Of a DNA stretch of 64,000 nucleotides, positions 3,371 through 60,467 are shown piece by piece. This DNA comes from a bacterium (GTDB lineage Bacteria > Bacillota > Clostridia > Oscillospirales > Oscillospiraceae), in the NCBI GenBank assembly GCA_963618015.1, contig CAVEQS010000009.1, positions 419-64,418 of the forward strand. Reading direction: 5' to 3'. The position numbers and the translations under genes were made by a program. The notes beneath the pieces were generated by a model. It searched no databases. It saw only the letters and a list, made by a program, of their open reading frames with translations, and was not told the DNA's origin. Positions within the stretch are counted from its first letter, which is position 1, and every line of letters begins with the position of its first letter.

Positions 3371-3496
3371 AAACCCCTCCGTCAAAACCTCCGGTTTTGC
3401 CACCTCCCCTATCGAGGGAGGCAAGTTTGTTATACACAAACTTACTTGGCTCCCCTATTAGGGGAGCTGGCAGCCGAAGGCTGACTGAGGGGTTTT
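3371..3496. repeat. Modular palindromic repeat cluster R1: B1> spacer <A1 (type-1 composite, ~126 bp)
   Basis: AAACCCCTCCGTC + hairpin (AAAACC/GGTTTT) + CCACC + hairpin (CTCCCCT/AGGGAGG) + CAAG, then a 21-nt spacer, then the inverted A module ending GACTGAGGGGTTTT. The termini form an imperfect inverted repeat. Confidence 0.85.
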
Positions 3497-3598
3497 CTTC
3501 TGTTCTTTTTACATTTTACGCCGATTTTACACGATCGGGGTTTCCCTCTTTACATTTTATATAGTATGATAGGCTCGATAATGAGAGGGGGCGTCCTT

Positions 3599-4270
3599 AT
3601 GATATATTGTGTGGAAGACGACGCCAGCATCCGCGAGCTGGTGCTCTATACGCTGCGCGCGTCCGGCTTTGAGGCGCGGGGCTTTGCCGAAAGCGGCGCA
3701 TTCTGGGAGGCCATGCGCGAGCATGTGCCGGATATCGTGCTGCTTGACATCATGCTTCCCGGCGAGGACGGTCTCGAAATACTGAAAAAGCTGCGCTCCT
3801 CCCCGCTCACGGCGCAGCTCCCCGTCATACTCGCCACCGCCCGCGGCAGCGAGTATGACAAGGTCGTCGGGCTGGATACCGGTGCGGACGACTATCTTGC
3901 CAAGCCCTTCGGCATGATGGAAATGGTATCGCGCATCCGCGCGGTGCTGCGCCGCACGGCGCGCCAGCCGTCCGGCGTGCTCTCCTGCGGCGGCGTCACG
4001 CTCGACGAGGGCCGCCACGCCGTCACAGTGAACGACCGTCCCGTCTCGCTCACGCTCAAGGAATACGAGCTTTTGAAGCTCTTTCTCGAAAACATCGGGC
4101 AGGTGTTCTCGCGCGAAGCGCTGCTCTCGCGCGTGTGGGATGCCGATTACGCCGGGGAGACGCGCACCGTAGACGTGCACGTCGGCACGCTGCGCACAAA
4201 GCTCGCCGAATGCGGCAGTCTCATCGAAACGGTGCGCGGCGTCGGCTATAAAATGGAGGGCGCGAAATGA
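3599..4270 (+). CDS. OmpR/PhoB-family response regulator
   Basis: Receiver domain (VEDD, IVLLDIMLPGEDG, LAKPF) plus winged-helix output (TRTVDVHVGTLRTKL, GVGYK). Start moved to ATG 3599 behind a GAGAGGGGG RBS. Confidence 0.9.
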   Translation: MIYCVEDDASIRELVLYTLRASGFEARGFAESGAFWEAMREHVPDIVLLDIMLPGEDGLEILKKLRSSPLTAQLPVILATARGSEYDKVVGLDTGADDYLAKPFGMMEMVSRIRAVLRRTARQPSGVLSCGGVTLDEGRHAVTVNDRPVSLTLKEYELLKLFLENIGQVFSREALLSRVWDADYAGETRTVDVHVGTLRTKLAECGSLIETVRGVGYKMEGAK

Positions 4271-5610
4271 GCCGGAAGATCTTCACCGCCATCTGGGGCG
4301 CGGCGCTCGCGGTGTTCGTTGCGTCGCTCGTCTTCATCATGGGCGTATCCTATAACTACTTTACCGGCGTGCAGATGAAGCAGCTGCACGCGGAAACGGC
4401 GCTCGCCGCGCAGGGCGTGGCGCTCAGCGGCAAGGACTACTTTACCGGTCTTTCGACCGGCGACTACCGTGTCACCTGGATCGACGCGGACGGCACGGTG
4501 CTCTTCGATACCGAAGCGGACGCCTCCCGCATGGAAAATCACCTCGAGCGTGAAGAGATCCAGCAGGCGCTCCAGACCGGCACGGGCGAAGCGCGCCGGT
4601 ATTCCCCCACGCTCGCCGACCGCCAGCTTTATGCCGCGCAGCGGCTCCCGGACGGGACGGTGCTCCGTCTCTCGGTCGTGCAGCTCGCGCTCTGGTCGCT
4701 CGTGCTCGGCTTTGCCCAGCCGATCTGCCTCGTGGCGCTGCTCGCGCTCGCGCTCTCGTTCTTCCTTGCCTCGCGGCTCACAAAAAAGATCGTCGCGCCC
4801 ATCAATGCCATTGACCCGGACAACCCGATGCAGTATTATGAAAGAGACGAGTACCGCGAGGTTGAGCCGCTTCTGCGGCGCATCGCCGCGCAGCAGGCGC
4901 AGCTCCGGCGCGACCGCGCCGAGATCGAGCGCGCCTCGCTCATCCGGCAGGAATTCACCGCGAACGTCTCCCATGAGCTGAAAACGCCGCTGCACGCCAT
5001 CTCCGGATATGCCGAGCTCCTGGAAAATGGGCTCGCGAGACCGGAGGACGTGAAGCCCTTCGCCGGAAAGATCCGCGCCGAGTCCGGCCGCATGACGAAG
5101 CTCGTCGAGGACATCATCGATCTCACCCGTCTCGACGCGGGCGGCGAGGACTACGTGTTCGAGTCCTGCGACCTTCTCCGCATCGCGGAAAACGCTGTGG
5201 ACAGCTTGGAGACCGAGGCCTCCGGCGCCAATGTGACGCTCTCGCTCAAGGGCGTGAGCGCACCCATGCAGGGCGTGCCGCAGCTTCTCCACAGCATCGT
5301 CTATAATCTCTGCGACAATGCCATCAAATATAACCGCCCCGGCGGGCGCGTCGATATCACCGTCACGCCGGAGGACGGCGCTGTCGTCCTCACGGTGAGC
5401 GATACCGGCGTCGGCATCCCGAAGGACAGCCAGAGCCGCATTTTTGAGCGATTTTACCGCGTGGACAAGAGCCGCTCCAAGGCCGTCGGCGGCACAGGGC
5501 TCGGCCTCTCCATCGTGAAGCACGCCGCGCTCATCCAGAAGGCGGACGTGCGCGTCGAAAGCGAGCCGGGCGAAGGCTCCACGTTTACCGTGACGTTCCC
5601 GGTACAATAA
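4267..5610 (+). CDS. Sensor histidine kinase (two N-terminal TM segments, HisKA + HATPase_c)
   Basis: H-box FTANVSHELKTPL and N/G boxes CDNAIKYN, DTGVGIP, GGTGLGLSIV. ATGA overlap with the regulator. Confidence 0.9.
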   Translation: MSRKIFTAIWGAALAVFVASLVFIMGVSYNYFTGVQMKQLHAETALAAQGVALSGKDYFTGLSTGDYRVTWIDADGTVLFDTEADASRMENHLEREEIQQALQTGTGEARRYSPTLADRQLYAAQRLPDGTVLRLSVVQLALWSLVLGFAQPICLVALLALALSFFLASRLTKKIVAPINAIDPDNPMQYYERDEYREVEPLLRRIAAQQAQLRRDRAEIERASLIRQEFTANVSHELKTPLHAISGYAELLENGLARPEDVKPFAGKIRAESGRMTKLVEDIIDLTRLDAGGEDYVFESCDLLRIAENAVDSLETEASGANVTLSLKGVSAPMQGVPQLLHSIVYNLCDNAIKYNRPGGRVDITVTPEDGAVVLTVSDTGVGIPKDSQSRIFERFYRVDKSRSKAVGGTGLGLSIVKHAALIQKADVRVESEPGEGSTFTVTFPVQ

Positions 5611-5624
5611 CATATCCCGCCCGA

Positions 5625-5646
5625 AGCCCGCTCACCGCGGGTTTTC
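5625..5646 (+). terminator. Possible intrinsic terminator after the kinase gene
   Basis: GCCCGC-tcac-CGCGGG hairpin followed by TTTT. Confidence 0.45.
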
Positions 5647-5680
5647 GGCGTATTCAGATTGAATTATAAGGAGGAATAGT

Positions 5681-6478: not shown

Positions 6479-6482
6479 AAGA

Positions 6483-6519
6483 ATACCGCTTGCGTGTCGC
6501 GGTATAATTGTGGTATAAT
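6483..6519 (+). promoter_or_regulatory. Putative TA-operon promoter with overlapping operator palindrome
   Basis: ATACCGC-n9-GCGGTAT inverted repeat (6483..6505) overlaps TTGCGT (-35-like) and two TATAAT hexamers (6503..6508, 6514..6519), just upstream of the antitoxin RBS AAAGGAG. Confidence 0.4.
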
Positions 6520-6544
6520 AATCCCACGAAAGGAGCTGACCCTT

Positions 6545-6805
6545 ATGCCGCGCATTATTCCGATCCGTGATCTCAAAGACACCGCCGCTATCTCCCAGAT
6601 GTGCAGCGAATCTCCCGAGCCGATCTACATCACCAAAAACGGCTATGGCGATATGGTCATCATGAGCATGCAGGCCTACGAGGAAAAGATGCTGCTGCTG
6701 GACGCTTACGAAAAGCTTTCCGCCGCGGAAGAGGAAGTGAAGTCCGGAAAGGTAACCGACGGCCGCGCTGCGCTGAAAGAGCTGAGGGCAAAGCATGGGC
6801 TATAA
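6545..6805 (+). CDS. Type II antitoxin, Phd/YefM-like
   Basis: MPRIIPIRDLKDTAAIS...PIYITKNGYGDMVIMSMQAYEE is the Phd/YefM N-terminal pattern. 86 aa, overlapping the toxin gene by 11 nt. Confidence 0.8.
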   Translation: MPRIIPIRDLKDTAAISQMCSESPEPIYITKNGYGDMVIMSMQAYEEKMLLLDAYEKLSAAEEEVKSGKVTDGRAALKELRAKHGL

Positions 6806-7106
6806 GGTTGCCCTTACGGAGCTCGCCGCCAGGGATCTTGATTCCATCACGGAATACATTGCCGAAAGGCTCTCCAATCCAACGGCCGCCGCCGCGTTTC
6901 TGGACGCTGTAGACGAGTGCTTCGGAGATCTGGAGACGATGCCGCCGATGTTTGCGCGCTGCCGCGATGCGCGGCTGCGCTCCATGGGTTACCGGCGCGC
7001 CGTCATAAAAAACTACGTAATGATCTACCGCGTGGCGGAGTCGAAGAAAACGGTATACATTCTCCGCTTCTTTTACGGCGCGCGAGACTATGAAAAACTG
7101 CTTTGA
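6795..7106 (+). CDS. Type II toxin, RelE/ParE family
   Basis: 103 aa. LTELAARDLDSITEYI N-terminus and VYILRFFYGARDYEKLL C-terminus, typical of ParE-type toxins. Translationally coupled to the antitoxin. Confidence 0.8.
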   Translation: MGYKVALTELAARDLDSITEYIAERLSNPTAAAAFLDAVDECFGDLETMPPMFARCRDARLRSMGYRRAVIKNYVMIYRVAESKKTVYILRFFYGARDYEKLL

Positions 7107-7119
7107 CATACAAAAATAC

Positions 7120-7147
7120 GCCTCCCCTTCGGGGAGGCATTTTCTTC
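7120..7147 (+). terminator. Intrinsic terminator after the TA pair
   Basis: GCCTCCCC-ttc-GGGGAGGC followed by ATTTTCTTC. Confidence 0.7.
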
Positions 7148-7207
7148 TTAACCTTTTAAGACTTTTCTTAATGTTTTCCGATACACTACGCTCCGAGGTG
7201 AACTGTC

Positions 7208-9626: not shown

Positions 9627-9637
9627 GTTACTTTATA

Positions 9638-9877
9638 AGGCCCCCTTGTGCAAAGGGGGCTGTCAGCCGCCAGGTTGACTGGGGGATTGTTTCTCCTGCG
9701 GGGAACCCCTCCGTCACGGCTACGCCGTGCCACCTCCGCCCCCCTCTCTGTCGCCTGCGGCGACATCTCTCCCCGCCGGGGAGAGTCTGCCCCTATTAGG
9801 GGAGGCAAGAGAGTTTTCTGAAAAGCCACTTGGCTCCCCTAATAGGGGAGCTGTCAGCAAAGCTGACTGAGGGGTTT
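9638..9877. repeat. Repeat cluster R2: <A2 ; B1> (carrying a ~52-nt nested hairpin insertion) spacer <A1
   Basis: Solo type-2 module (CCCCCTTGTGCAAAGGGGG...GACTGGGGGATTG), then AACCCCTCCGTCACGGC-tacg-CCGTGCCACCTCC[insert 9738..9789]CCCCTATTAGGGGAGGCAAG, a spacer, and an inverted A1 ending GACTGAGGGGTTT. That terminus overlaps the MATE stop codon. Confidence 0.85.
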
Positions 9878-11234
9878 ATGCCGCAGCCTTTGCTTCGAGC
9901 GTCGCCTTGAACGGCTTCTTCCGCACGATGAAGTAGCATACGATGTGCGCCGCCGTCGTCATGATCCAGGAGATCGGGTAGGATACATAGAGGCTCTCGA
10001 GCGTTCCGACGGTCGCGAACACCGTATACACCCAGATGATGCGGAATACGCACGCGCCCACGAACGTCACCGCCGCGGAGAGCATGCTGTAGCCCAGTCC
10101 GCGGTTCACGCCGGACATGGCCGCCATGGTGCCGTCGAGCGCATACGTTGTGCAGACGATCATCATGCGGGTAAACGCCGCCTGCAGCTCCGCCTCGCTC
10201 GAGGTATAAAGCCCCAGCACCTGCCGCCGGAACACGATCGCGGGCACCGTCAGCACGGCGGTCAAAATCACGACGAGCGCCATCGACCACCGGGCAACGG
10301 AGCGCGAGCGCTCATACTCCTGCGCACCGACGTTCTGGCTCACAGCAGTGGTCGCCGCCTGCATTACGGCGTCCGACGGGCAGTAGAGCAGGCCCTCAAC
10401 GCTGACGCACGCGCTGTTGCCGGCGATGACCGCCGCGCCGAACGAGTTGACCGAGGCCTGGATGATAAAGTTCGAAATGGAAAAGAGCGAGCCCTGGATA
10501 CCGGCGGGGATGCCGATCTTCATCATTTTCTTGAACACGTGGCCGGAGAACTTCAGTTCTTTCACCTTCATCTCCTGCGAAGTAAGCAGGCAGCGCACCG
10601 TGAGGAAGCCGGACACGCACTGGCTGAGTACGGTAGCAATGGCGACGCCCGCCACGTCGATGCCGACGACGAGCACAAAGAAGAGGTTCATCATCACGTT
10701 CAGCACACCGGCGATGGCGAGATAGATGAGCGGCTGGCGCGTGTTGCCGAGCGCGCGCAGCGCCGCGGCGGAGAAGTTATAAAGCGCCATGACCGGCAGA
10801 CCGAGGAAGTAGATCCGCAGATACACCGTGGCGAGCGGCAGCACCTCGTCCGGGCTGCCGATGAGCCGCAGCAGCGGCACCGTGAGCGCAAAGCCGAGCG
10901 CGCCGGTGATCACACCGCCGATCACGCCGACGATGATCGTTGTTCCCACGGTGCGGTGCAGCTTGTCGGTCTGGTTCGCGCCGTAATACCGCGCGCAGAG
11001 CACGCCGCCGCCCGTGGCAAGTCCCAGAAGGACGTTGATGATCAGGTTGATCATCGCGCCGTTTGCGCCGACCGCCGCCATGGAGTGCGGCCGCCCAAAC
11101 CGCCCGACGACAATGAGGTCGGCGGCGTTGAACGCGATCTGCAGCATGGATGAAAGCATCAGCGGCAGGATAAACTGCAAAAGCTCCGGCAGCAGCGGGC
11201 CTTTTGTCATATTGATCTCAAATCTTTTTTTCAT
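9876..11234 (-). CDS. MATE-family efflux transporter
   Basis: About 452 aa and 12 TM with typical MATE repeat organisation. Start moved to MKKRFEINMTKGPLLP. Confidence 0.9.
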   Translation of the reverse strand: MKKRFEINMTKGPLLPELLQFILPLMLSSMLQIAFNAADLIVVGRFGRPHSMAAVGANGAMINLIINVLLGLATGGGVLCARYYGANQTDKLHRTVGTTIIVGVIGGVITGALGFALTVPLLRLIGSPDEVLPLATVYLRIYFLGLPVMALYNFSAAALRALGNTRQPLIYLAIAGVLNVMMNLFFVLVVGIDVAGVAIATVLSQCVSGFLTVRCLLTSQEMKVKELKFSGHVFKKMMKIGIPAGIQGSLFSISNFIIQASVNSFGAAVIAGNSACVSVEGLLYCPSDAVMQAATTAVSQNVGAQEYERSRSVARWSMALVVILTAVLTVPAIVFRRQVLGLYTSSEAELQAAFTRMMIVCTTYALDGTMAAMSGVNRGLGYSMLSAAVTFVGACVFRIIWVYTVFATVGTLESLYVSYPISWIMTTAAHIVCYFIVRKKPFKATLEAKAAA

Positions 11235-12118: not shown

Positions 12119-12146
12119 GTCGTGTCCCCCTTATGTTGATATAATA

Positions 12147-12246
12147 AAGCCTCCCTCTTTGAGGGAGGTGGCTCGCCGAAGGCGAGACGGAAGGAGTCGA
12201 CTCCCTCAGTCTCGCTTCGCTCGACAGCTCCCTCTGGGAGGGAGCC
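12147..12246. repeat. Repeat cluster R3: <B3 A3> (type-3 modules, tail-to-tail)
   Basis: AAAGCCTCCCTCtttgAGGGAGGTGGCTCGCCgaagGCGAGACGGAAGGAGT-cg-ACTCCCTCAGTCTCGCttcgCTCGACAGCTCCCTCtgggAGGGAGCC. It ends 2 nt before the asnS stop. Confidence 0.85.
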
Positions 12247-12248
12247 TA

Positions 12249-13643
<1,395 letters not shown>

Positions 13644-13715: not shown

Positions 13716-13847
13716 AAAACCCCTCAGTCAGCCTTGCGGCTGCCAGCCCCCCTGTTAGGGGGGCCAAGTGGGTTTGCGAAATGCTTTCTTGCCTCCCCTC
13801 GTTAGGGGAGGTGGATTTTGCCGAAGGCAAAAGACGGAGGGGTTTTT
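13716..13847. repeat. Repeat cluster R4: A1> spacer <B1 (type-1 composite)
   Basis: AAAACCCCTCAGTCAGCCttgcGGCTGCCAGCCCCCCTgttaGGGGGGCCAAG, spacer, CTTGCCTCCCCTcgttAGGGGAGGTGGATTTTGCCgaagGCAAAAGACGGAGGGGTTTTT. It ends 3 nt before the ABC exporter stop. Confidence 0.85.
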
Positions 13848-23473: not shown

Positions 23474-23620
23474 TGTGGAAAACCCGGCGAAGGCCTTGAA
23501 AATCAAAGATTTTCGATGTGGAAAACTTGACCCTGATTTTTCCACAGTTTCCACAGAAGAGAGAAGCTGAAAAGTTTTGAACATTTATAAACAGTTTTTC
23601 CACATACATCTTGTGGAAAA
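23474..23620. promoter_or_regulatory. oriC DnaA-box cluster (dnaA-dnaN intergenic)
   Basis: Six 9-mers of the TTTTCCACA/TGTGGAAAA type: 23474..23482, 23517..23525, 23538..23546, 23547..23555 (GTTTCCACA), 23596..23604 and 23612..23620. An AT-rich stretch lies at about 23421..23468. Confidence 0.85.
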
Positions 23621-25096: not shown

Positions 25097-25230
25097 GCCT
25101 CCCTCGTCAGAGGGAGCCAGAAAACGAAAATTTACGCTTTACGAACATTTTACAACGGCGCGGTGACGGATTTTACACCCCCGGACGTAGAATACTCCCC
25201 GACAAGAAAGTCGGGGAGTATTGTGCTTTT

Positions 25231-27696: not shown

Positions 27697-27926
27697 GGCT
27701 CCCTCACCAGAGGGAGCCTTCTGAGCAAAGCAAAAGGATTTGTTGTAAACCCCTCAGCCAGCTTCGCTGCCAGCTCCCCTATTAGGGGAGCCAAGTGGGT
27801 TTGCAGAAAACGATCTTGCCTCCCCTAAAACCGGAGGTTTTGACGGAGGGGTTGTCGTTTTCCGAAGACTACAATCCCTCAGTCTCGCTTCGCTCGACAG
27901 CTCCCTTTACACAAGGGAGCCTTTTT
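27697..27926. repeat. Repeat cluster R6: hp2-like hairpin ; A1> spacer <B1(internally deleted) spacer A2/3>
   Basis: GGCTCCCTCaccaGAGGGAGCC at 27697..27718, then an A1 module at 27747..27795. A truncated B module lacking one hp2 arm follows at 27815..27853. It ends with ACAATCCCTCAGTCTCGCttcgCTCGACAGCTCCCTTTacacAAGGGAGCCTTTTT (27871..27926), which stops 3 nt before the PsuG-like stop codon. Confidence 0.8.
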
Positions 27927-27929: not shown

Positions 27930-28574
27930 TTATACCGCCGAGATCTTTCTCTTGATATCCATCGCCACGGCGGAGGCCTTCTCGGCAATATCGCCGAGCG
28001 TGTCGCCGCAGGGGATGACCGTGCACTCGTTCACTTCCAAATCGCGCTGCACGAGATAGGCGTCTGCAAGCTCCTCCGCGGGCAGACGTAGCACCGGCAC
28101 GCCGCGCGAGGAAAAGAGCAGCGCTTTGTCCGGCGAGACCTTCCCGCAGAACACGAGCCGTGAAGAGCCGGAGAGCGCGTCCAGATCGGCGAGAGAATCG
28201 CGCAGCCCCGGCGCCATGACCGGGATGATACCCGCCATGCGCGCAATGGCCAGCGTAGCGGAGGGACCCGTGCCGGAGGTAGACCCGCCGCCGACGAGCG
28301 CGGGGATCTGCGAGCGCGTGCAGCTGCCGCCGCTGCGGCAGAGCGTTTCCATATCCTGTTTGGAAAGGCCGGCCTTGAGCCGCCCGTTCACGATGCCGAC
28401 GCAGCACGGCACGCAGTCGCGCCGGTAAAACGCCTGCTCGCACTCCTGCAGCGCCTCTAAATTGCGCGGGTACGGCAGCTGCATGAAAAATCCGGTCTCG
28501 ATGGCGATGATCGGCGTTCCCGCCTTGAGCGACGCCAGCACCGGCGGACACATATCCAGATATTTGCTTGCCAT
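27930..28574 (-). CDS. Short, divergent pseudouridine-5'-phosphate glycosidase (PsuG/IndA)-like protein
   Basis: PIIAIETGFFMQLPYPRNLEALQECEQAFYRRDCVPCCVGIVNGRLKAGLSKQDMETLC parallels the PsuG N-terminus (VALESTIIsHGmPYPqN...G.vPAtiai.dG...vGLs.eEle.L). It is only about 214 aa and the GGIGGVHRG-type motif is replaced. Start set to the ATG behind GGAGGAGG (MASKYLDM). Confidence 0.6.
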   Translation of the reverse strand: MASKYLDMCPPVLASLKAGTPIIAIETGFFMQLPYPRNLEALQECEQAFYRRDCVPCCVGIVNGRLKAGLSKQDMETLCRSGGSCTRSQIPALVGGGSTSGTGPSATLAIARMAGIIPVMAPGLRDSLADLDALSGSSRLVFCGKVSPDKALLFSSRGVPVLRLPAEELADAYLVQRDLEVNECTVIPCGDTLGDIAEKASAVAMDIKRKISAV

Positions 28575-28596
28575 AGAGATTGCCTCCTCCATATTC

Positions 28597-28724
28597 AAGC
28601 CTCCCTTGTGTAAAGGGAGGTGTCACGGCGCGCAGCGCCGTGACGGAGGGATTGTCATTTTCTTGAGACTACAATCCCCCAGTCAGCTTTGCTGACAGCC
28701 CCCTTTGCACAAGGGGGCCTTTTT
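28597..28724. repeat. Repeat cluster R7: <B2 spacer A2> (type-2 composite)
   Basis: AAGCCTCCCTTgtgtAAAGGGAGGTGTCACGGCGCgcaGCGCCGTGACGGAGGGATTGT, a 16-nt spacer, then ACAATCCCCCAGTCAGCtttGCTGACAGCCCCCTTTgcacAAGGGGGCCTTTTT. Confidence 0.85.
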
Positions 28725-29574: not shown

Positions 29575-29579
29575 TAATC

Positions 29580-29787
29580 GGCTCCCTCTTTGAGGGAGCC
29601 GTCGAGCGCAGCGAGACTGAGGGAGTAACTCCTTTCGTCTCGCCTTCGGCGAGCCACCTTCCTCAAAGAGGAAGGCAAGCCGGTTATCGTAAAACTTTCT
29701 TGGCTCCCCTCGTTAGGGAAGCTGGCGCGGCGCGCAGCGCCGTGACTGAGGGGTTTCTACCTCCCCGTATTCCGGGGAGGCTTTTTT
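29580..29787. repeat. Repeat cluster R8: <A3 B3> spacer <A1 ; terminal terminator hairpin
   Basis: GGCTCCCTCtttgAGGGAGCC...GACTGAGGGAGT | AACTCCTTTCGTCTCGCCttcGGCGAGCCACCTTCCTCaaaGAGGAAGGCAAG | spacer | CTTGGCTCCCCTcgttAGGGAAGC...GACTGAGGGGTTT, then CCTCCCCGtattCCGGGGAGGCTTTTTT. It starts 5 nt after the PDZ gene stop. Confidence 0.85.
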
Positions 29788-35436: not shown

Positions 35437-35565
35437 AAAAAGCCTCCCTTGTGTAAAGGGAGGTGGCGCGGCGCAAAGCGCCGTGACGGAGGGATTGTCT
35501 TTCTCCGGAAACTACAATCCCCCAGTCAGCTTTGCGGCTGACAGCCCCCTTTACACAAGGGGGCC
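35437..35565. repeat. Repeat cluster R9: <B2 spacer A2> (type-2 composite)
   Basis: AAAAAGCCTCCCTTgtgtAAAGGGAGGTGGCGCGGCGCaaaGCGCCGTGACGGAGGGATTGT, a 15-nt spacer, then ACAATCCCCCAGTCAGC..GCTGACAGCCCCCTTTacacAAGGGGGCC. It starts 3 nt after the stop of the hypothetical gene. Confidence 0.85.
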
Positions 35566-35570
35566 ATTGA

Positions 35571-36079: not shown

Positions 36080-36589
36080 ATGCGGGGAAAAAAGTGCTGT
36101 GTTACCGGGCATCGCGATATCCCGTCGGATTGCATTGACTATGTAAAGACGTCTTTGGAACAGGAGATCGACTGTGCGATCAACGACGGCTTTTCCTGCT
36201 TTATCTCCGGCTTTGCGGATGGAGCCGACCTGCTGTTTGCGGAGATCGTTGCGGATCGGATCGCAAAGTATCCGGCGCTTCGGATGATCGCAGCCATTCC
36301 GTACCGGAAGCGCCTGGATAAACTGAAAAAATCGGAGCATACAAAAGCACTGCTTGATCGTTGTGCTGAAATCTATGTTGCCGCGGAAGAATATCATCCC
36401 GGTGTTTTTGCCAAGCGGAACCGCTATATGGTCGAGTGTTCGGAGCGGGTGATCGCCGTCTATGACGGCCGTGAGAAGGGCGGTACCGCCGGGACGATTC
36501 AACTGGCGCACACCATGAAAAAGGAACTGCGGCAAATAAAAACAGCTCCCTCTGACGAGGGAGCTGGCAGCGGCATTGCCGCTGACTGA
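36080..36589 (+). CDS. SLOG-superfamily protein (DUF1273 / YpsA-like)
   Basis: CCVTGHRDIP, FISGFADGADLLFAEIV, RNRYMVECSERVIAVYDGREKGGTAGT match the DUF1273/YpsA Rossmannoid pattern. The last ~15 codons (TAPSDEGAGSGIAAD) and the stop codon lie inside repeat module R10. Confidence 0.75.
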   Translation: MRGKKCCVTGHRDIPSDCIDYVKTSLEQEIDCAINDGFSCFISGFADGADLLFAEIVADRIAKYPALRMIAAIPYRKRLDKLKKSEHTKALLDRCAEIYVAAEEYHPGVFAKRNRYMVECSERVIAVYDGREKGGTAGTIQLAHTMKKELRQIKTAPSDEGAGSGIAAD

Positions 36590-36594
36590 GGGAG
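36543..36594. repeat. Repeat R10: solo inverted A module
   Basis: CAGCTCCCTCtgacGAGGGAGCTGGCAGCGGCattGCCGCTGACTGAGGGAG. It overlaps the 3' end of the SLOG gene. Confidence 0.75.
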
Positions 36595-36611
36595 AGAAAA
36601 CTGAGGCAACT

Positions 36612-40756: not shown

Positions 40757-40764
40757 CCTTATAG

Positions 40765-40894
40765 AGGCTCCCTTGTGTAAAGGGAGCTGTCAGCCGCCAG
40801 GCTGACTGAGGGATTGCAGTCATCGGAAAATGACAATCCCTCCGTCACGGCGCTATGCGCCGCGCCACCTCCCTTTACACAAGGGAGGCTTTTT
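40765..40894. repeat. Repeat cluster R11: <A2 spacer B2> (type-2 composite)
   Basis: AGGCTCCCTTgtgtAAAGGGAGCTGTCAGCCgccaGGCTGACTGAGGGATTG, a 16-nt spacer, then ACAATCCCTCCGTCACGGCGC..GCGCCGCGCCACCTCCCTTTacacAAGGGAGGCTTTTT. It ends 2 nt before the nucleotidyltransferase stop. Confidence 0.85.
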
Positions 40895-41893: not shown

Positions 41894-43063
41894 TCAGAGA
41901 AGCAGGGACTTCTCGGTCTCGCGGTCGAAGAGGTGGATGCTGTCCTCGTGCAGTTCGAGAGCGACCTGCTGGCCGTAAGACGGGATGGCGTCCAGCTCGA
42001 GCGTCGGCACGATGACAACGGCGTCGTGGCCGGCGGCGGTGAGGTGCAGATGCACGCTGGAGCCCATCATCTCGGACACGTCCACGCGCGCGGGGATGCC
42101 GCCGTTCTTCGCGAGCACGATGTGCTCCGGACGGATGCCGAGCGTCACGGGGCCGGACTTCACATCGTTGCGCAGAAGCGCTGCCTGCTTATCCTCGGTG
42201 AGGTTGACCTGCTCGCCGCAGACCTCCACGGTGTACTTGTCGCCGTCGCGCTTGAGCTCGGCGTCGAAGAAGTTCATCTGCGGCGTGCCGATGAACCCGG
42301 CGACGAACAGGTTGGCGGGCTTATCGAACACTTCCTGCGGCGTGCCGATCTGCTGGATGAAGCCGTCGCGCATGATGACGATGCGGTCGCCAAGCGTCAT
42401 GGCCTCGGTCTGGTCGTGGGTGACGTAGATGAACGTGGTGTCGATCTTGTCGCGCAGCTTGATGATCTCGGCGCGCATCTGGTTGCGGAGCTTGGCGTCG
42501 AGGTTGGAGAGCGGCTCGTCCATGAGGAACACCTTGGGGCTGCGCACGATGGCGCGGCCGATGGCGACGCGCTGGCGCTGGCCGCCGGAGAGCGCCTTCG
42601 GCTTGCGGTCGAGCAGGGCGGTGATGTCCAGAATTTCCGCGGCCTCGCGGACCTTCTTGTCGATCTCGGCCTTCGGGAGCTTTTTGAGCTTGAGCGAGAA
42701 CGCCATGTTCTCGTAAACGGTCATGTGGGGGTAAAGAGCGTAGTTCTGGAATACCATGGCGATGTCGCGGTCCTTGGGGGCGACGTCGTTCATACGCTTG
42801 CCGTCGATGAAAAGATCGCCCGAGGTGATCTCCTCGAGACCGGCGATCATGCGCAGCGTCGTGGACTTGCCGCAGCCGGACGGGCCGACGAGCACGATGA
42901 ATTCCCGGTCGGCGATGTCCAGCGAGAACTGCTGCACCGCAACGACACCCTCATCGGTGATCTGCAGATTGTGCTTCTTCTCGGGGGCTTCGCCCTTTTT
43001 CTTCTTCGTGCCGCCCTGATTGGGATAGATTTTTTTGATGTCTACCAGACGTACTTCTGCCAT
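41894..43063 (-). CDS. Orphan sugar ABC transporter ATP-binding protein (MalK/MsmK/MsiK type)
   Basis: Walker [35 protein letters not shown], plus a C-terminal MalK-type regulatory domain. No permease or binding protein adjacent. Start at MAEVRLVDIKK (43063). Confidence 0.9.
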   Translation of the reverse strand: MAEVRLVDIKKIYPNQGGTKKKKGEAPEKKHNLQITDEGVVAVQQFSLDIADREFIVLVGPSGCGKSTTLRMIAGLEEITSGDLFIDGKRMNDVAPKDRDIAMVFQNYALYPHMTVYENMAFSLKLKKLPKAEIDKKVREAAEILDITALLDRKPKALSGGQRQRVAIGRAIVRSPKVFLMDEPLSNLDAKLRNQMRAEIIKLRDKIDTTFIYVTHDQTEAMTLGDRIVIMRDGFIQQIGTPQEVFDKPANLFVAGFIGTPQMNFFDAELKRDGDKYTVEVCGEQVNLTEDKQAALLRNDVKSGPVTLGIRPEHIVLAKNGGIPARVDVSEMMGSSVHLHLTAAGHDAVVIVPTLELDAIPSYGQQVALELHEDSIHLFDRETEKSLLL

Positions 43064-43250
43064 GCGTACCGATCCTGATCTGAGAGCCTCCGCTTGCTCA
43101 GACCTTACCTCCGCCGAATATGTACGGAGGCTATACGGCAGGTCTCCACACTGCCGCACCGCGGATCCTGCGGGGAAAACAAACTCCTTTCATCGAACCG
43201 CGCACCGCTCGTAAGGTGGAGAGCGGAGGCGATCCGGTTATTGTATCTAA
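43064..43250 (-). promoter_or_regulatory. Long structured 5' leader of the orphan ATPase gene (candidate cis-regulatory RNA)
   Basis: In minus-strand reading, the 5' segment ACCGGATCGCCTCCGCT can pair with AGCGGAGGC...GATCGGT just before the ATG. This encloses three local hairpins (CCGC/GCGG, GGCAG/CTGCC, CCTCCG/CGGAGG). A TTGGAA...TGGTAGATT promoter-like sequence lies upstream, at about 43255..43285. Confidence 0.3.
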
Positions 43251-44552: not shown

Positions 44553-44678
44553 AAACCCCTCCGTCAAAAACTTCGTTTTTGCCACCTCCCCTGTTAGGGG
44601 AGGCAAGCCGGTATTCTGCAAATCTCCTTGGCTCCCCTAATAGGGGAGCTGGCTCGCCATAGGCGAGACTGAGGGGTT
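44553..44678. repeat. Repeat cluster R12: B1> spacer <A1 (type-1 composite)
   Basis: AAACCCCTCCGTCAAAAACttcGTTTTTGCCACCTCCCCTgttAGGGGAGGCAAG, spacer, CTTGGCTCCCCTaatAGGGGAGCTGGCTCGCCataGGCGAGACTGAGGGGTT. The terminus runs into the galE stop codon (TCA on +). Confidence 0.85.
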
Positions 44679-45703
44679 CATTCCCCGTCCGCCGCAAACC
44701 CGTTCGGGTTTTTGCTCTGCCAGTTCCAGCTGTCGCGGCACATATCCTCGAGCGAATACTCCGCCTTCCAGCCGAGCTCCCGCTCGGCCTTGCTCGGATC
44801 GCAGTACACCTCGGCAACGTCCCCGGCGCGGCGCGGCGCAATGACATAGGGGATGTGTTTCCCTGTTGCTGCCTCAAAGGCGTGCACCATGTCGAGCACG
44901 CTGTAGCCGTGGCCGGTGCCGAGATTGAAGATATGGACGCCGGGGTGCTCCGCCATATAGTCCATCGCCGCAACATGGCCGCGCGCGAGATCGACAACGT
45001 GCAGATAGTCGCGCACGCCCGTGCCGTCCGGCGTGGGATAGTCGTCGCCGAATACGCTGAGCTTCTCGCGCCGCCCGGCGGCGGTCTGCGAAATATACGG
45101 CATCAGGTTGTTCGGGATGCCGCGCGGGTCCTCGCCGATGAGGCCGCTCGGATGCGCGCCGACGGGGTTGAAGTACCGCAGCAGCATGACCGTCCACTCG
45201 CTGTCGGCCTTCGCCGTGTCGGTGAGGATCTGCTCGCTCATGTACTTCGTCCAGCCGTAGGGGTTCGTGCAGCCGCCGGTGCGGGCGCTCTCGTCCACGG
45301 GCATGGCGTTGTCCGGCGAATACACCGTCGCGGACGAGGAGAAGAGAATTTTCTTCACGCCGTGCGCTGCCATCGTCTGGCAGAGATGGATGGTGGTGCC
45401 GAGATTGTTGTTATAGTACCGCAGCGGCTGCTGCACCGACTCCCCCACCGCCTTGAGCCCGGCAAAGTGGAGCACGCAGTCAAACTGGTGCGTATCGAAA
45501 AGCTCATTGAGTGCCGCGCGGTTTAAAAGATCCATTTCGTGAAATTCGAGCGTCTTTCCGGTGATGCGCTCCACACGCCGCAGACACTCCGCATTGGAGT
45601 TTACGAGATTATCCACCACAACGACCGAATGCCCCGCGTTCAGAAGCTCCACGCAGGCGTGGCTGCCGATGTATCCGGCGCCGCCGGTTACGAGAACGTT
45701 CAT
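44678..45703 (-). CDS. galE: UDP-glucose 4-epimerase
   Basis: [15 protein letters not shown] Rossmann motif, PYGWTKYM (YxxxK), 341 aa. Start at 45703. Confidence 0.93.
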
Positions 45704-45746
45704 GAAAACGACCTCCTTTAGTATCATAAAATGTCATCTTATTCTA

Positions 45747-49859: not shown

Positions 49860-49986
49860 AAAACCCCTCCGTCAAAAATTTCATTTTTGCCACCTCCCCT
49901 TTTAGGGGAGGCAAGATCGTTTACCGCGAACCCACTTGGCTCCCCTAATAGGGGAGCTGTCAGCCGTGAGGCTGACTGAGGGGTTT
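49860..49986. repeat. Repeat cluster R13: B1> spacer <A1 (type-1 composite)
   Basis: AAAACCCCTCCGTCAAAAATttcATTTTTGCCACCTCCCCTtttAGGGGAGGCAAG, spacer ATCGTTTACCGCGAACCCA, CTTGGCTCCCCTaatAGGGGAGCTGTCAGCCgtgaGGCTGACTGAGGGGTTT. The last T is the first base of the TRAP permease stop (TCA on +). Confidence 0.88.
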
Positions 49987-55842: not shown

Positions 55843-55872
55843 TTGCTCGCCATAGAAAACCACCGCGAAAAA

Positions 55873-55888
55873 TGTTTCACGTGAAACA
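55873..55888. promoter_or_regulatory. parS site 2 (perfect 16-bp palindrome)
   Basis: TGTTTCACGTGAAACA, 46 bp from site 1, upstream of parA. Confidence 0.9.
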
Positions 55889-55945
55889 GTTGCAAAATGG
55901 GGAACGCATCATTATAATAAACGATGCTAAGAAAACAGAGACGGT

Positions 55946-56056
55946 AAAACTCCCTCAGTCTCGCCTTTGGCGAGCCAGCTCCCTCAAAGAGGGAGCCAAT
56001 TTGCCTCCCTCCCCGAGGGAGGTGGCCCGGTGCTTCGCGCCGGGACGGAAGGAGTT
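55946..56056. repeat. Repeat cluster R14: A3> <B3 (head-to-head, no spacer)
   Basis: AAAACTCCCTCAGTCTCGCCtttGGCGAGCCAGCTCCCTCaaaGAGGGAGCCAA | TTTGCCTCCCTCcccGAGGGAGGTGGCCCGGtgcttcgcgCCGGGACGGAAGGAGTT. It lies between the parS pair and the parA start. Confidence 0.85.
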
Positions 56057-56843: not shown

Positions 56844-57733
56844 AGATGGCAAAAGAAAAGACATCACGGCTCGGAACCGGGCTTTCCGCCCTGTTCGGCG
56901 AGGAGGAGAACGTCCTCGAAAACGAAACGGTGCAGACCCTGCCGATCTCACGGGTCGAGCCGCGCAAGGATCAGCCGCGCCGGGAGTTTGACCCCGCGGC
57001 GATCGAGGAGCTGGCAGCGTCCATCCGGGAATACGGACTCATCCAGCCCATCACGGTGCGTCCGCTGGATAAAGGCTATTATCAGATCATCGCGGGTGAG
57101 CGCCGCTGGCGCGCCTCCCGCGCCGCGGGACTCAAGGAAGTGCCGGTGCGCATTTTGGAGGCGGACGATAAGCTCGCCATGGAGCTTGCGCTCGTGGAAA
57201 ACCTCCAGCGCGAGGACTTAAACCCCATGGAAGAGGCCGCAGGCTATAAAAAGCTCATGGACGATTACGGCCTTACGCAGGAGCAGGTCGCCTCGCGCGT
57301 GCAGAAGTCGCGTCCCGCGGTCACGAACGCGCTGCGCCTTTTGTCGCTCGGCGAGACGCTGCAAAAGAAGGTCTCCGCCGGGAAGCTCTCCGCCGGTCAC
57401 GCGCGCGCCCTTCTGCCGCTCAAGACCGAGGCGCTGCGCGAAAAGGCGGCCGCCGAGGTCGAATCGCGCGGCTTGAGCGTCCGGCAGACGGAAACGCTCG
57501 TCGCTTCCCTGCTCCGCCAGGCGGAGCAGCCGGAAAAGGAAGAGAAGAAGCCGCCGGTCGTGGACTACGTCCGCGAGGCGGAAAAAGCGCTCAGCGACGC
57601 GCTGGGACGCGGCGTAAAGTTCCAGGGCGGGCAGAAAAAAGGCCGCATCGCGCTGGAGTTCTATTCCGCGGACGACCGCGAGGCGCTGATGGAAGCGCTC
57701 AAACATATGGACAAGCCCTGGAAAAAGAAATAA
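56840..57733 (+). CDS. spo0J: Chromosome partitioning protein ParB/Spo0J
   Basis: [52 protein letters not shown] overlap with parA. Confidence 0.93.
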
Positions 57734-57751
57734 TTTTGAGGAGAATATATC

Positions 57752-59053
57752 ATGCTGGACATTCGTTTTATTCGTGAGAATCCGGAACTCGTGCGCGAAA
57801 ACATCCGCAAGAAGTTCCAGGACAAGAAGCTCCCCCTCGTGGACGAGGTGCTGGAGCTGGATGAAAAGCTGCGCGCGGCGAAGACCGAGGCAAACGAGCT
57901 TCGCGCCAACCGCAACGCCCTTTCCAAGAAGATCGGCATGCTGATGGGTCAGGCGAAGAAGGATCCCTCCAAGCTCGAAGAGGCCGAGAGCGTCAAGGCC
58001 GAGGTCGCGCGCGAGGCCGCGCGGCTTGCCGAGCTCGAAAAGCTTGAGCCGGAGTACGAGGCGCAGCTCAAAGAGCGCATGATGGTCATCCCACAGATGA
58101 TCGATCCGAGCGTCCCCATCGGCCCGGACGACAGCTGCAACGTTGAGGTGCAGCGCTTCGGCGAGGCGACCGTGCCCGACTTTGAGATCCCCTACCACAC
58201 CGAGATCATGGAGAGCTTCAACGGCGTCGATCTGGACGCGGCGCGCCGCGTCTCCGGCAACGGCTTCTACTATCTCCGCGGCGATATCGCCCGCCTGCAC
58301 TCCGCCGTGCTGGCGTATGCGCGCGACTTCATGATCGATAAGGGCTTTGTCTACTATATCCCGCCGTACATGATCCACGGCGACGTGGTGCAGGGCGTCA
58401 TGTCCCAGACCGATATGGACGCCATGATGTACAAGATCGAGGGCGAGGACCTTTATCTCATCGGCACGAGCGAGCACTCCATGATCGGCTCGTTCATCGA
58501 CCGCATTGTCCCGGAGAAGGAGCTCCCCATCACCTATACGAGCTATTCTCCGTGCTTCCGCAAGGAAAAGGGCGCGCACGGCATCGAGGAGCGCGGCGTT
58601 TACCGCATCCACCAGTTCGAAAAGCAGGAGATGATCGTCGTCTGCAAGCCCGAGGAGAGCATGGAGTGGTACGAGAAAATGTGGCGCTACAGCGTGGAGC
58701 TGTTCCGCTCGCTCGAAATTCCGGTGCGTCAGCTCGAATGCTGCTCCGGCGACCTTGCCGATCTCAAGGTGAAGAGCTGCGATATCGAAGCCTGGAGCCC
58801 GCGCCAGCAGAAGTACTTTGAGGTCTGCTCCTGCTCGAATCTCGGCGATGCGCAGGCGCGCCGCCTGAAGATCCGCGTCCGCGGCGAAGACGGTAAGCTT
58901 TATCTTGCCCATACGCTCAACAACACCGTCGTTGCGCCTCCGCGCATGCTCATCGCGTTCCTGGAGAACCACCTGCACGCCGACGGCAGCGTCGATATCC
59001 CCGAGGTGCTTCGTCCGTACATGGGCGGCAAGGATCATCTCGAAAAGAAGTAA
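57752..59053 (+). CDS. serS: Serine--tRNA ligase
   Basis: N-terminal coiled-coil arm (MLDIRFIRENPELVRENI...), class II core FRKEKGAHG..RGVYRIHQFEK, TLNNTVVAPPRMLIAFLEN; 433 aa. Confidence 0.95.
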   Translation: MLDIRFIRENPELVRENIRKKFQDKKLPLVDEVLELDEKLRAAKTEANELRANRNALSKKIGMLMGQAKKDPSKLEEAESVKAEVAREAARLAELEKLEPEYEAQLKERMMVIPQMIDPSVPIGPDDSCNVEVQRFGEATVPDFEIPYHTEIMESFNGVDLDAARRVSGNGFYYLRGDIARLHSAVLAYARDFMIDKGFVYYIPPYMIHGDVVQGVMSQTDMDAMMYKIEGEDLYLIGTSEHSMIGSFIDRIVPEKELPITYTSYSPCFRKEKGAHGIEERGVYRIHQFEKQEMIVVCKPEESMEWYEKMWRYSVELFRSLEIPVRQLECCSGDLADLKVKSCDIEAWSPRQQKYFEVCSCSNLGDAQARRLKIRVRGEDGKLYLAHTLNNTVVAPPRMLIAFLENHLHADGSVDIPEVLRPYMGGKDHLEKK

Positions 59054-59080
59054 AACGTAAAATTCCAACGGGAACAACCA

Positions 59081-59908
59081 ATGGAAAACACCGTTCGTAT
59101 CCGTATTCTGCGCTGCGGAACGATGACTCCCCCGGCGGCAGCGTATCCGGGCGTGCCGAAGCGGTACGTCCGGCGCGGCCGCGTCGAGCTGCCGGTGAGC
59201 GCATTTCTCATCGAGACGCCGGGGCATAAGCCGGTGCTCGTCGATACCGGCTGGGGGCGTGCGATCAGCCCCGCGGGCGTATACGACCACGCCGCGGCGC
59301 GCGCGAAGCTCCCGCCGCGCTTGTGCGCCTACTGGCAGCCCGTCACGCCGCCGGGGTGGAGCGTGCGTGAGCAGCTTGCAAAGCTCGGCTTCTCCCCTGC
59401 CGAGCTCGAAACGGTTCTGCTCACATCGCTGGAGCCGGATCATGTTGCGGGCGTGGATGAGGTGAGCGATGCGCCTCTCATTGAGCTGCCGGAACAGGAG
59501 AAATACTGGACGCCGCGCACCGTGTACGCGCTGCGCCAGCCGCGCTCGCTCTGGGAGCACCTGCCGGTAAAGCCGTTTTATTACCGCGGCGTGCCGGACG
59601 GGCCATTCCGCCGGACGTGGGATCTCCTCGGCGACGGGAGCATCCTCTGCATCAGCACCCCGGGGTATACCGAGGGCGCGTGCGTCCTGCGCGTAAATTC
59701 CCCGAGCGGGAAATATGTGCTCGTGCAGTCCTCGATTGCCGTGTGCCGGGATGTGCTCGGCACGGAGAATGTGCCGCTTGCGGGCTTCAACCGTGAATTT
59801 CAAAAGCGCTCGCTCGCCTGGCTCTCGGATGTGAGCCGTGAGGAAAACTGCGCCGCCGTCCTCTTCGGGCATGACCCGGAGGAGATCCCGCGCGTGATCG
59901 AATTTTGA
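59081..59908 (+). CDS. MBL-fold hydrolase-like protein with degenerate metal motif
   Basis: Overall lactonase/MBL-like layout (SAFLIETPGHKPVLVDTG...). The position of HxHxDH reads SLEPDH. 275 aa. Confidence 0.6.
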   Translation: MENTVRIRILRCGTMTPPAAAYPGVPKRYVRRGRVELPVSAFLIETPGHKPVLVDTGWGRAISPAGVYDHAAARAKLPPRLCAYWQPVTPPGWSVREQLAKLGFSPAELETVLLTSLEPDHVAGVDEVSDAPLIELPEQEKYWTPRTVYALRQPRSLWEHLPVKPFYYRGVPDGPFRRTWDLLGDGSILCISTPGYTEGACVLRVNSPSGKYVLVQSSIAVCRDVLGTENVPLAGFNREFQKRSLAWLSDVSREENCAAVLFGHDPEEIPRVIEF

Positions 59909-59917
59909 GGTGACAAT

Positions 59918-60340
59918 GTGAAAGAAAAGCTGAAAGCCCTCTATGAAAAATACAAGGATCTCGTCCCCTACGTGTTCTTCGGCGTGCTGACGACGATCGT
60001 GAACTATGTCTCCTACTGGCTGTTTGCGCATCCGCTCGGCTGCAGCACGGTGGTCAGCACCGCCGTTGCGTGGCTTTTGAGCGTGCTGTTCGCCTATGTG
60101 ACGAACCGCCGCTGGGTCTTCCACAGCGAGGCGAAGGGCAGAAAGGAGATCGGGAAGGAGTTTGCCGCATTTTTCAGCGCCCGCCTGGGGACGGGGCTTC
60201 TGGATATGCTCATCATGTACCTGTGCGTCGATCTGCTCGGCTGGAACGACATGGTCATGAAGCTCGCCTCGAACGTCATCGTTGTCATTCTCAATTACAT
60301 TCTGAGCAAGTTCTTCATCTTCAAGAAAAAGGAAAAATAA
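59918..60340 (+). CDS. GtrA-family membrane protein
   Basis: 140 aa, 4 TM, with FGVLTTIVNYVSYWLF and NRRWVF motifs typical of GtrA. GTG start. The stop TAA lies in the first bases of repeat R15. Confidence 0.85.
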   Translation: MKEKLKALYEKYKDLVPYVFFGVLTTIVNYVSYWLFAHPLGCSTVVSTAVAWLLSVLFAYVTNRRWVFHSEAKGRKEIGKEFAAFFSARLGTGLLDMLIMYLCVDLLGWNDMVMKLASNVIVVILNYILSKFFIFKKKEK

Positions 60341-60467
60341 CCCCCTCCGGCTTTTGCCTGCGGCAAAATCCACCTCCCCTGGCGAGGGGAGACAAGATCG
60401 TTTACTGCAAACCCACTTGGCTCCCCTAATAGGGGAGCTGGCAGCGAAGCTGACTGAGGGTTTTTTT
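60337..60467. repeat. Repeat cluster R15: B1> spacer <A1 (type-1 composite)
   Basis: ATAACCCCCTCCGGCTTTTGCCtgcGGCAAAATCCACCTCCCCTggcgAGGGGAGACAAG, spacer ATCGTTTACTGCAAACCCA, CTTGGCTCCCCTaatAGGGGAGCTGGCAGCgaaGCTGACTGAGGGTTTTTTT. Confidence 0.85.

Follow-up and report, generated by a model that had tools for sequence, protein, structure and literature searches.

Among described repeats, those closest to the family considered here are the CGTC-tagged repetitive extragenic palindromic (REP) sequences, which combine a CGTC tag with a CCA tail, form inverted dimers near gene 3' ends and have no associated transposase (Di Nocera, De Gregorio and Rocco 2013, PMC3733652). The text of that 2013 survey describes them as single hairpins with 8-9 bp stems that open with A-T pairs and 4-5 nt loops, mostly in head-to-head dimers, lists TGTC and CCTC as tag variants, and reports them from five phyla, mainly from alpha-proteobacteria, with no Firmicutes or Deinococcus named there; REPs are thought in the same text to act as RNA elements. 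Here we analyse a 64,000-nt stretch of contig CAVEQS010000009.1 (assembly GCA_963618015.1, Oscillospiraceae), called the window throughout, whose intergenic DNA holds a dense family of modules of about 50 nt, each comprising two hairpins (hp1 and hp2). Our main explanation, which we consider likely, is that these modules are non-coding, non-autonomous repeats of the type of REPs and bacterial interspersed mosaic elements (BIMEs).

Judged by sequence against the text description, the core of tag, hp1 and CCA fits the CGTC-tagged REP superfamily. As in that description, the tag is unpaired, with C-GTC directly 5' of hp1 in all 11 complete modules of flavour B (defined below); the hairpin is short and of variable sequence, a CCA tail follows it, the dimers are inverted, gene 3' ends in co-directional or convergent settings are occupied, no transposase is associated, and alpha-proteobacteria and Bacteroidetes are among the carriers. 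Unlike the repeats in the text of the survey, our module has two hairpins together with a conserved pyrimidine terminus and a conserved hp2, its hp1 stems are of 5-9 bp with loops of 3-5 nt, tail-to-tail junctions are slightly commoner than head-to-head ones (8 versus 6 in the window), and its partner flavour A is tagged AGTC, a variant absent from the 2013 list.

Other systems offer partial parallels. With the REP/BIME arrays of E. coli the family shares two palindromic flavours, strict alternation, fixed linker motifs, clusters of 2-3 units and variable occupancy, whereas the sequence is unrelated, the tag is CGTC or AGTC rather than GTAG, each unit has two hairpins, and no REP-associated tyrosine transposase (RAYT) was found; the alternating inverted units are BIME-like behaviour, not membership of the BIME family. 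REPINs are REP doublets moved by RAYTs, which are domesticated Y1 transposases. Like them, our inverted doublets act as one unit and solo modules appear to be doublet remnants, whereas single modules also insert alone, and no RAYT or TIRYT homologue was found in the 2.16 Mb of DNA that we searched (the window plus 286 fetched loci). Miniature elements derived from IS200/IS605 carry subterminal hairpins near each end and move by peel-and-paste single-strand transposition. Our modules resemble them in having hairpins near the ends, a fixed short sequence beside which they insert, a target duplication that is minimal or absent, and a constant orientation with respect to the host module; they differ in that their two hairpins are dissimilar and no TnpA was found.

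The family combines a known REP superfamily, the CGTC-tagged one, with a known structural class, that of intrastrand triplex repeats, and the claim of complete novelty in the first-pass annotation of this DNA, made from the sequence alone, was too strong: the core fits CGTC-tagged REPs, the module is conserved across phyla, and the terminus mirrors hp2. Within the literature searched, what is new is the two-hairpin unit, its conservation across phyla including Firmicutes and Deinococcus, the mirror covariation of terminus and hp2, and the site-specific nesting of single modules; a full-text search with the exact terminus strings returned primers only. The CGTC-REP superfamily is hereby extended to Firmicutes, Deinococcus and Verrucomicrobiota, with a conserved unit larger than the published hairpin.

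Anatomy, flavours and census of the modules

Every module folds alone as terminus, hp1, linker, hp2 and tail. The unit reads pyrimidine terminus, flavour base, GTC, hp1, CCA, hp2 and a 4-nt tail, where hp1 is a hairpin of free sequence and hp2 joins a pyrimidine 5' arm to a purine 3' arm; CCA or ACA directly follows hp1 in nearly all modules, and among 144 modules about half have an hp1 that opens with an A-T pair. Thirty modules were delimited by eye, and a covariance model built from the 27 complete ones was run unfiltered on both strands; its structure was set by hand, since unequal stem lengths caused an alignment with MAFFT and RNAalifold to miss hp1. Across the whole window the model returned exactly 27 full modules (41.7-70 bits) and 3 damaged ones (match spans 60339-60396, 27770-27854 and 9703-9764), and on neither strand of the remainder did it find anything beyond isolated hp2-like hairpins. 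With 1 nested module, these make up 14 clusters that cover 1858 nt, or 2.9% of the window; of the roughly 7.1 kb of intergenic DNA there, they take up about 26%. All are intergenic, none of the 14 lying within a confident coding region. Going by shuffled sequence, the terminus motifs of the three main subfamilies (types 1 to 3) should occur 0.10, 0.06 and 0.40 times; the observed counts are 14, 9 and 7.

The modules come in two flavours. Flavour A (16 modules) joins tag A, linker G and an hp2 closing pair G:C; flavour B (11 modules) joins tag C, linker C and a closing pair C:G; the linkage of these three positions has no exception among the 27 complete modules. Each of the 13 adjacent pairs counted joins an A to an inverted B, and the three-module clusters R2, R5 and R7 alternate in both orientation and flavour. 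Tail-to-tail joints have a spacer of 19 nt from CAAG to CTTG, and head-to-head joints one of 15 nt; each spacer has a consensus, and its polarity tracks the B-to-A order. Elsewhere, a rarer third flavour with tag T and closing pair T:A replaces B as the partner of A (L005, L008, L020, L027, L041), and a further variant has tag CCACC with linker TCCCC (e.g. L004, L029, L084, L090).

Much of this had been anticipated by the first-pass annotation. Per-module folds and the covariance model uphold its modular two-hairpin anatomy and its three subfamilies, its estimate of about 30 copies in 14 clusters and 3% of the window agrees with the census above, the compensated G/C swap between flavours proved exact, and the BIME-like alternation holds for every adjacent pair. 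For its tail-to-tail range of 0-16 nt, 19 nt should be read. It missed a fourth type, nested at 9736-9789, with the layout CCCCCCTCTCT-GTC-hp1-AT-CTCTCCCC..GGGGAGAG-TCTG, and one match to its type-3 motif, near 43182, is part of a malK-I RNA rather than a module. Its suggestion that type-1 composites (a B and an A joined tail-to-tail) fold as a multibranch structure of about 125 nt is supported by z-scores of -9.4 as DNA and -6.8 as RNA.

So stable a multibranch fold (z = -6.8 to -9.4), taken with the covariation described below, is what might be expected if the composites were structured small-RNA genes or a riboswitch-like family. We regard this as highly improbable, given some 30 copies in 64 kb, no strand preference, no conserved promoter, and copies that are truncated, nested, collapsed or deleted between close relatives. 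Rfam likewise assigned no family to the modules, whether scanned at gathering or at E-value thresholds, and yielded weak overlaps only (E 0.14-0.89); the sole family above threshold in the window is malK-I (RF03069).

Gene-end placement, instability and spread

Eight clusters lie between co-directional genes, 5 between convergent and 1 between divergent ones, and 13 of the 14 are downstream of at least one gene; 9 overlap a stop codon or sit 0-5 nt from one. In this small sample of window clusters, orientation shows no bias with respect to transcription or the replication origin, and type-1 composites stand in either order relative to the upstream gene (3 B-first, 3 A-first). A terminator scan marked as terminator-like the type-2 hp2 hairpins followed by T-runs at 27900, 28698, 35463 and 40868, and the solitary module of R9, and found no terminator-like T-run hairpin in type-1 and most type-3 modules. 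By their sequence, the type-2 hp2 hairpins with T-runs and the solo hp2-like hairpins look like the usual terminators of this organism, and from that resemblance a terminator or 3' untranslated region (UTR) role is likely, at least as a secondary one. Outward-facing type-2 hp2 hairpins with T-runs would then act as intrinsic terminators, with the consequence that whole dimers end up in 3' UTRs. Solo hairpins with hp2 arms ([G/C]CTCCC[C/T]..[A/G]GGGAG[C/G]) occur at 7118-7140, 25097-25118, 27697-27718 and 29759-29780, several of them preceding T-runs; these are either module remnants standing alone or ordinary terminators similar to hp2.

Contigs 92-97% identical to the window were found through exact-protein look-ups of nine window proteins, five of which had no match. 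Among these relatives the occupancy of the sites is uneven. Cluster R2 is present in the window and in L031 and empty in 10 relatives (L137-L146), which retain the upstream terminator and a slightly longer MatE gene, and the R6 pair is missing from 5 relatives (L159, L162, L164, L165, L166). The site 3' of asnS has three fillings, namely a type-3 pair in the window, a type-1 B-then-A composite in L001 and L031, and the inverted composite in L137 and L139. At R4 the relatives have an unrelated palindrome instead; content at R7 and R10 differs among relatives, with R7 empty in L166; R12 is empty or otherwise filled; and at R14 more distant relatives are 69 nt shorter. The R1 dimer (window 3371-3495) has become in L138 (about 340-420) a single hybrid hairpin, its 5' arm from B and its 3' arm from A, in place of two hp2 hairpins and the spacer, which looks like recombination between repeated arms.

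A further difference concerns the nested type-4 module. In the B module of R2, this 54-nt unit splits the 5' arm of hp2, which is whole in L031. Type-4 modules are nested after CCACC[T/C], at the same hp2 position, in four different host modules (window and L157-L162, including the R8 B module of L162), the three in relatives being of different types. Matched empty sites are at hand for two of the four, one in L031 and one in the window. The fixed position in four hosts indicates that single modules insert site-specifically, and the nested insertion provides a natural mobility assay. Taken together, filled and empty sites, replacement, inversion, collapse and nesting indicate that the elements are mobile or unstable. 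The family is the main structural difference between otherwise 92-97% identical strains, donating stop codons and altering 3' and 5' UTRs, and as such it matters for how abundant gut Clostridia are annotated, assembled and typed by strain.

Two observations stand beside this comparison. A second, unrelated palindromic repeat family (GGCGGAGCAGAGCCCCGCC ... GGCGGGGCTCTGCTCCGCC) occurs in this species group at sites that hold type-1 composites in the window, namely at 9880-9945 of L001, at about 6840-6910 of L137 and at the R12 site of L157. In addition, L031 (CAVIVK010000149.1), syntenic with the window and 92-97% identical to it, comes from a bin labelled Bifidobacteriaceae, which is probably contaminated or mislabelled.

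The same comparisons bear on two rival accounts. One holds that the modules are primarily cis-acting RNA, as bidirectional terminators, 3'-UTR stabilisers or ribosome-stalling structures kept by per-gene selection and not spread as selfish DNA. Their closeness to stop codons and their position downstream of genes, the terminator scores of type-2 hp2 with T-runs and of the solo hairpins, the retention of hp1 pairing in every copy, and the RNA role proposed for REPs in PMC3733652 would all suit it. Type-1 composites, however, lack a T-run and occur in both orders relative to the upstream gene, the same site may be empty, filled or differently filled despite the same flanking genes, one pair lies between divergent promoters, and nesting destroys the host hairpin; we therefore think this account unlikely. 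The other would make type-1 composites classical miniature inverted-repeat transposable elements of about 125 bp, with 13-bp terminal inverted repeats (AAACCCCTCNGTC), a DDE transposase acting in trans and target-site duplication. The terminal repeats are indeed perfect, the internal spacer is polar, and both orientations are found at one site. Nevertheless, units other than the composite (head-to-head dimers, single modules and a nested single module) also exist and propagate, the composites are not bordered by direct repeats, no transposase gene with these ends was found in the 2.16 Mb, and hp1 is free in sequence and conservatively paired, unlike an inverted repeat that binds a transposase, all of which makes this account very improbable. 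Non-coding repeats of REP/BIME type remain our preferred explanation of the family.

The family is not confined to the window, copies being abundant well outside it; the outcomes that the first-pass annotation had named as refuting it, such as a genome-wide total of only these few copies, did not arise. A cross-phylum scan for the exact pattern of terminus, tag and hp2 start, with one genome per species, found at least 119 loci carrying the two-hairpin module, and the covariance model recovered 181 modules in 99 of them. The matches listed include metagenome-assembled genomes of Oscillospiraceae and other Clostridia, isolate genomes of Deinococcus, Novosphingobium, Brevundimonas and Allomuricauda, and sequences of Bacteroidales, Tidjanibacter and Coraliomargarita, so that Clostridia, Deinococcus, alpha-proteobacteria, Bacteroidota and Verrucomicrobiota are all represented among them; 16 viral contigs also have the module pattern. 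In several phyla the entire module is kept with hardly a base changed. Exact module matches occur in Novosphingobium, Sphingomonas and Brevundimonas, which are related to species listed in the 2013 survey. Deinococcus has the same composite of A, CAAG, spacer, CTTG and B, and alpha-proteobacteria have B-B dimers with a longer hp2. In a plasmid collection only three Novosphingobium replicons, unannotated, were matched, and the window composite matched none.

Structure is conserved along with this spread. Among 144 distinct modules, 92.8% of cells are paired versus 79.6% in shuffles, and 10 of 11 pairs vary on both sides. One hp1 pair is AU in 73 modules, GC in 28, UA in 22 and CG in 12; the use of all four Watson-Crick types indicates that hp1 is kept as a structure and not as a sequence.

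Mirror covariation and a possible triplex

Over 7 positions, the terminus together with the flavour base (e.g. CCCCTC-C) reads as the hp2 5' arm (C-CTCCCC) written backwards, without complementation. Across 169 distinct modules, mirror identity is 0.90 in register versus 0.49-0.57 at shifts of one or two positions. At least seven asymmetric haplotypes were found and all are mirrored, among them (terminus/hp2 arm) CCCCTC/CTCCCC, TCCCTC/CTCCCT, TCCCCC/CCCCCT, CTCTCC/CCTCTC, CCCTTC/CTTCCC and CCCCTCTC/CTCTCCCC. These haplotypes are drawn from different genomes and phyla, and terminus and hp2 also co-vary in the symmetric variants CTCCCTC, CTCCTC and CCTCTCC. When modules were defined without the terminus, 16 of the 23 with a non-consensus hp2 were exactly mirrored and 1 had the consensus terminus. 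A metagenome scan by CGTC and hp2 CCTCTCC/GGAGAGG gave the terminus CCTCTC in 114 of 127 matches and CCCCTC in 0 of 127, with 61 different hp1 sequences among the concordant distinct modules; as CCTCTCC is itself mirror-symmetric, this result speaks for co-variation, not for a mirror over a direct repeat. The flavour base follows the closing pair as well, C going with C:G, A with G:C and, in four genomes, T with T:A. The two termini of a dimer also pair with each other, which adds a second constraint.

Three other readings were rejected. The modules do not fit integron attC sites, as their AAC/GTT polarity is wrong. For a G-quadruplex or i-motif there are only three G- or C-runs per dimer strand, and variants without runs still obey the mirror rule. 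Watson-Crick pairing of the terminus with hp2 is impossible for the asymmetric types.

A mirror repeat beside a complementary arm is the arrangement by which intrastrand triplexes are defined, and on sequence grounds it is plausible that each module could fold into one, with the REP hairpin hp1 as the connecting loop. Triplex formation in vitro is known for intrastrand motifs of this kind, namely BoxC, PIT and TM-ECO, which are also markers of unstable loci (Hoyne and Maher 2000; Holder et al. 2015, PMC4666352). Our modules are like them in being repeated, intergenic and G/C-rich, in consisting of a pyrimidine block, a complementary purine block and a third purine-related block, in having two types, in lying at loci rearranged between close strains, and in that one strand is predicted to form a triplex of the class II purine motif and the opposite strand one of the pyrimidine motif. 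TM-ECO has stems of 9 nt and two loops of 3-6 nt (PMC4666352), whereas the module has stems of 7-8 nt, another sequence, and a second loop of 25-45 nt with a REP-type hairpin. The three-block layout of pyrimidine, complementary purine and mirror block with a stem of at least 6-7 nt is present in the module; the connection from third strand to duplex, GTC-hp1-CCA, exceeds the loops of at most 6 or 10 nt (1-6 in ITxF; 0-10 in Hoyne et al.) used in published motif searches, which would consequently miss a motif with a 25-45 nt REP-hairpin loop.

These features allow us to propose a model for the propagation of the family. In this model, the modules would be copied or moved in trans by an enzyme not encoded alongside them, one that probably acts on folded single strands presenting a hairpin plus a triplex. 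The G-rich strand would form a class II purine-motif intrastrand triplex (G.G-C, A.A-T), and the C-rich strand a class IV triplex of the pyrimidine motif; hp1 would supply the connecting hairpin. Flavours A and B would then differ by one base triple, and A/B heterodimers would place three mismatches in an otherwise perfect palindrome of about 125 bp. A more far-reaching form of the model, which we offer only tentatively and consider possible rather than probable, is that the module represents a mobile-element class of its own, ancient and spread by horizontal transfer, whose working form is a folded single-stranded DNA triplex recognised by an unlinked enzyme. As part of this same tentative reading, a helix of seven triples (G.G-C, A.A-T and, in flavour A, T.C-G, which would be the triple favoured at C-G inversions), held in a clamp by a REP-type hairpin, would serve both copying and site-specific insertion. 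If true, this would give the long-orphaned CGTC REPs a structure and a handle on the protein that mobilises them.

Several results weigh against this model or narrow it. The mirror has exceptions, namely a subfamily with terminus CCTCTC and hp2 CTCCCC (59 of its 71 matches A-type, with exact B partners) and the B3 modules of the window with one stable mismatch; with stable one-mismatch subfamilies, the rule is strong and not absolute. A C-run third strand needs protonation, and purine-motif triplexes have been reported not to form in RNA. Most comparisons of filled and empty sites are replacements that lack clean ends, and the nested insertion may have duplicated CC of its target or nothing at all. 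As the cross-phylum scan was exact-match by design, it cannot gauge how typical the flanks are among CGTC REPs. As regards an enzyme, a Pfam scan of 46 window proteins found no transposase, RAYT or Y1 (HUH) protein, and phmmer with 14 RAYT/TIRYT queries against six-frame open reading frames (ORFs) of the 2.16 Mb had no hit at E<1e-3. This agrees with the first-pass annotation, which had seen no transposase or RAYT in the window and had suggested looking for a RAYT flanked by modules; there is none among the searched sequences. All-versus-all clustering of the ORFs beside 119 loci brought up only generic ABC transporters as recurrent genes, no transposase among them, and no transposase lies between split module halves, the four candidates being Ffh, RNase J, a 236-nt interval (L081) and a chance match in a coding region. 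With no transposase found, the copying mechanism is one that we infer. The mirror covariation links the previously separate REP and intrastrand-triplex literatures and makes fold and recognition testable by experiment.

Module coordinates and neighbouring features

The coordinates of all modules are collected in the table below. The host is a Firmicute, as the first-pass annotation had proposed, and a sporulating one: the window encodes GerA/GerAB/GerAC and the GPR germination protease and has the gene order dnaA-dnaN-recF-remA-like gene-gyrB-gyrA. The remaining window genes were named only via Pfam matches in syntenic relatives.

Modules of the repeat family in the 64,000-nt window, by cluster, type and flavour
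Feature	Position	Strand	Remarks
R1 module, type 1, B	3371..3425	+	57.7 bits; 15 nt 3' of the stop of the germination permease gene (2264-3355)
R1 module, type 1, A	3445..3495	-	70 bits; tail-to-tail via 19-nt spacer 3426-3444
R2 module, type 2, A	9636..9690	-	55.9 bits
R2 module, type 1, B	9703..9809	+	hp2 5' arm split by nested module; intact in L031
Nested type-4 module	9736..9789	+	54-nt insertion relative to L031
R2 module, type 1, A	9829..9877	-	65.4 bits; terminus is the TAA stop of the MatE gene 9876-11234
R3 module, type 3, B	12146..12198	-	58.2 bits
R3 module, type 3, A	12199..12249	+	54.7 bits; head-to-head, 0-nt spacer; adjoins asnS stop
R4 module, type 1, A	13717..13768	+	69.9 bits
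R4 module, type 1, B	13788..13845	-	47.8 bits; ABC transporter gene stop 5 nt away
R5 module, type 1, A	27747..27795	+	61.7 bits
R5 module, type 1, B, internal deletion (without linker and hp2 5' arm)	27815..27855	-	25.8 bits
R5 module, type 2, A	27871..27924	+	56.6 bits; hp2 with T-run terminator-like (terminator scan)
R6 module, type 2, B	28596..28655	-	57.1 bits
R6 module, type 2, A	28671..28722	+	55.2 bits; head-to-head via 15-nt spacer 28656-28670; terminator-like
R7 module, type 3, A	29577..29627	-	50.1 bits
R7 module, type 3, B	29627..29679	+	54.5 bits
R7 module, type 1, A	29699..29756	-	50.8 bits
R8 module, type 2, B	35439..35498	-	58.5 bits
R8 module, type 2, A	35514..35568	+	62.6 bits
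R9 solitary module, type-3-like, A	36541..36596	-	41.7 bits; terminator-like
R10 module, type 2, A	40764..40817	-	63.6 bits
R10 module, type 2, B	40833..40892	+	57 bits; terminator-like
R12 module, type 1, B	44553..44607	+	60.1 bits
R12 module, type 1, A	44627..44679	-	61.6 bits; overlaps stop of epimerase gene (44678-45727)
R13 module, type 1, B	49861..49915	+	56.5 bits
R13 module, type 1, A	49935..49986	-	69.6 bits; overlaps DctM gene stop; composite fold z = -9.4
R14 module, type 3, A	55948..56000	+	63.7 bits
R14 module, type 3, B	56000..56056	-	48.1 bits; tail-to-tail, no spacer
R15 remnant, B (hp2 only)	60369..60396	+	29 bits
R15 module, type 1, A	60416..60464	-	63.3 bits

In the R6 B module, the 3' arm of hp2 (AAGGGAGG, region 28590-28620) lies just 5' of the Shine-Dalgarno sequence and start of an Indigoidine_A-like gene (27930-28592, minus strand), which is called 6 codons longer where the R6 insertion is present (220 versus 214 aa). 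The R14 pair (55872-56056 region) overlaps the longest possible ParA/Soj ORF, and the N-terminal extension of the 300-aa ParA annotated in relatives would span this region. In the window the gene probably begins farther downstream, near 56022.

Five DnaA boxes (TTTTCCACA) are found at 23474-23620, in the dnaA-dnaN intergenic region. This region is probably oriC, in which case the window straddles the replication origin.

The malK-I RNA mentioned above is full-length (43058-43238, minus strand; 120.4 bits, E = 4e-22) and directly 5' of the gene for a MalK-type ABC ATPase (41894-43063, minus strand). Finally, genes for a Phd/YefM antitoxin (6545-6805) and a ParE toxin (6795-7106) lie on a 631-bp segment (6479-7109, plus strand) that is missing from the 94-97% identical relatives L137, L140, L142 and L143, which points to a strain-specific toxin-antitoxin insertion.

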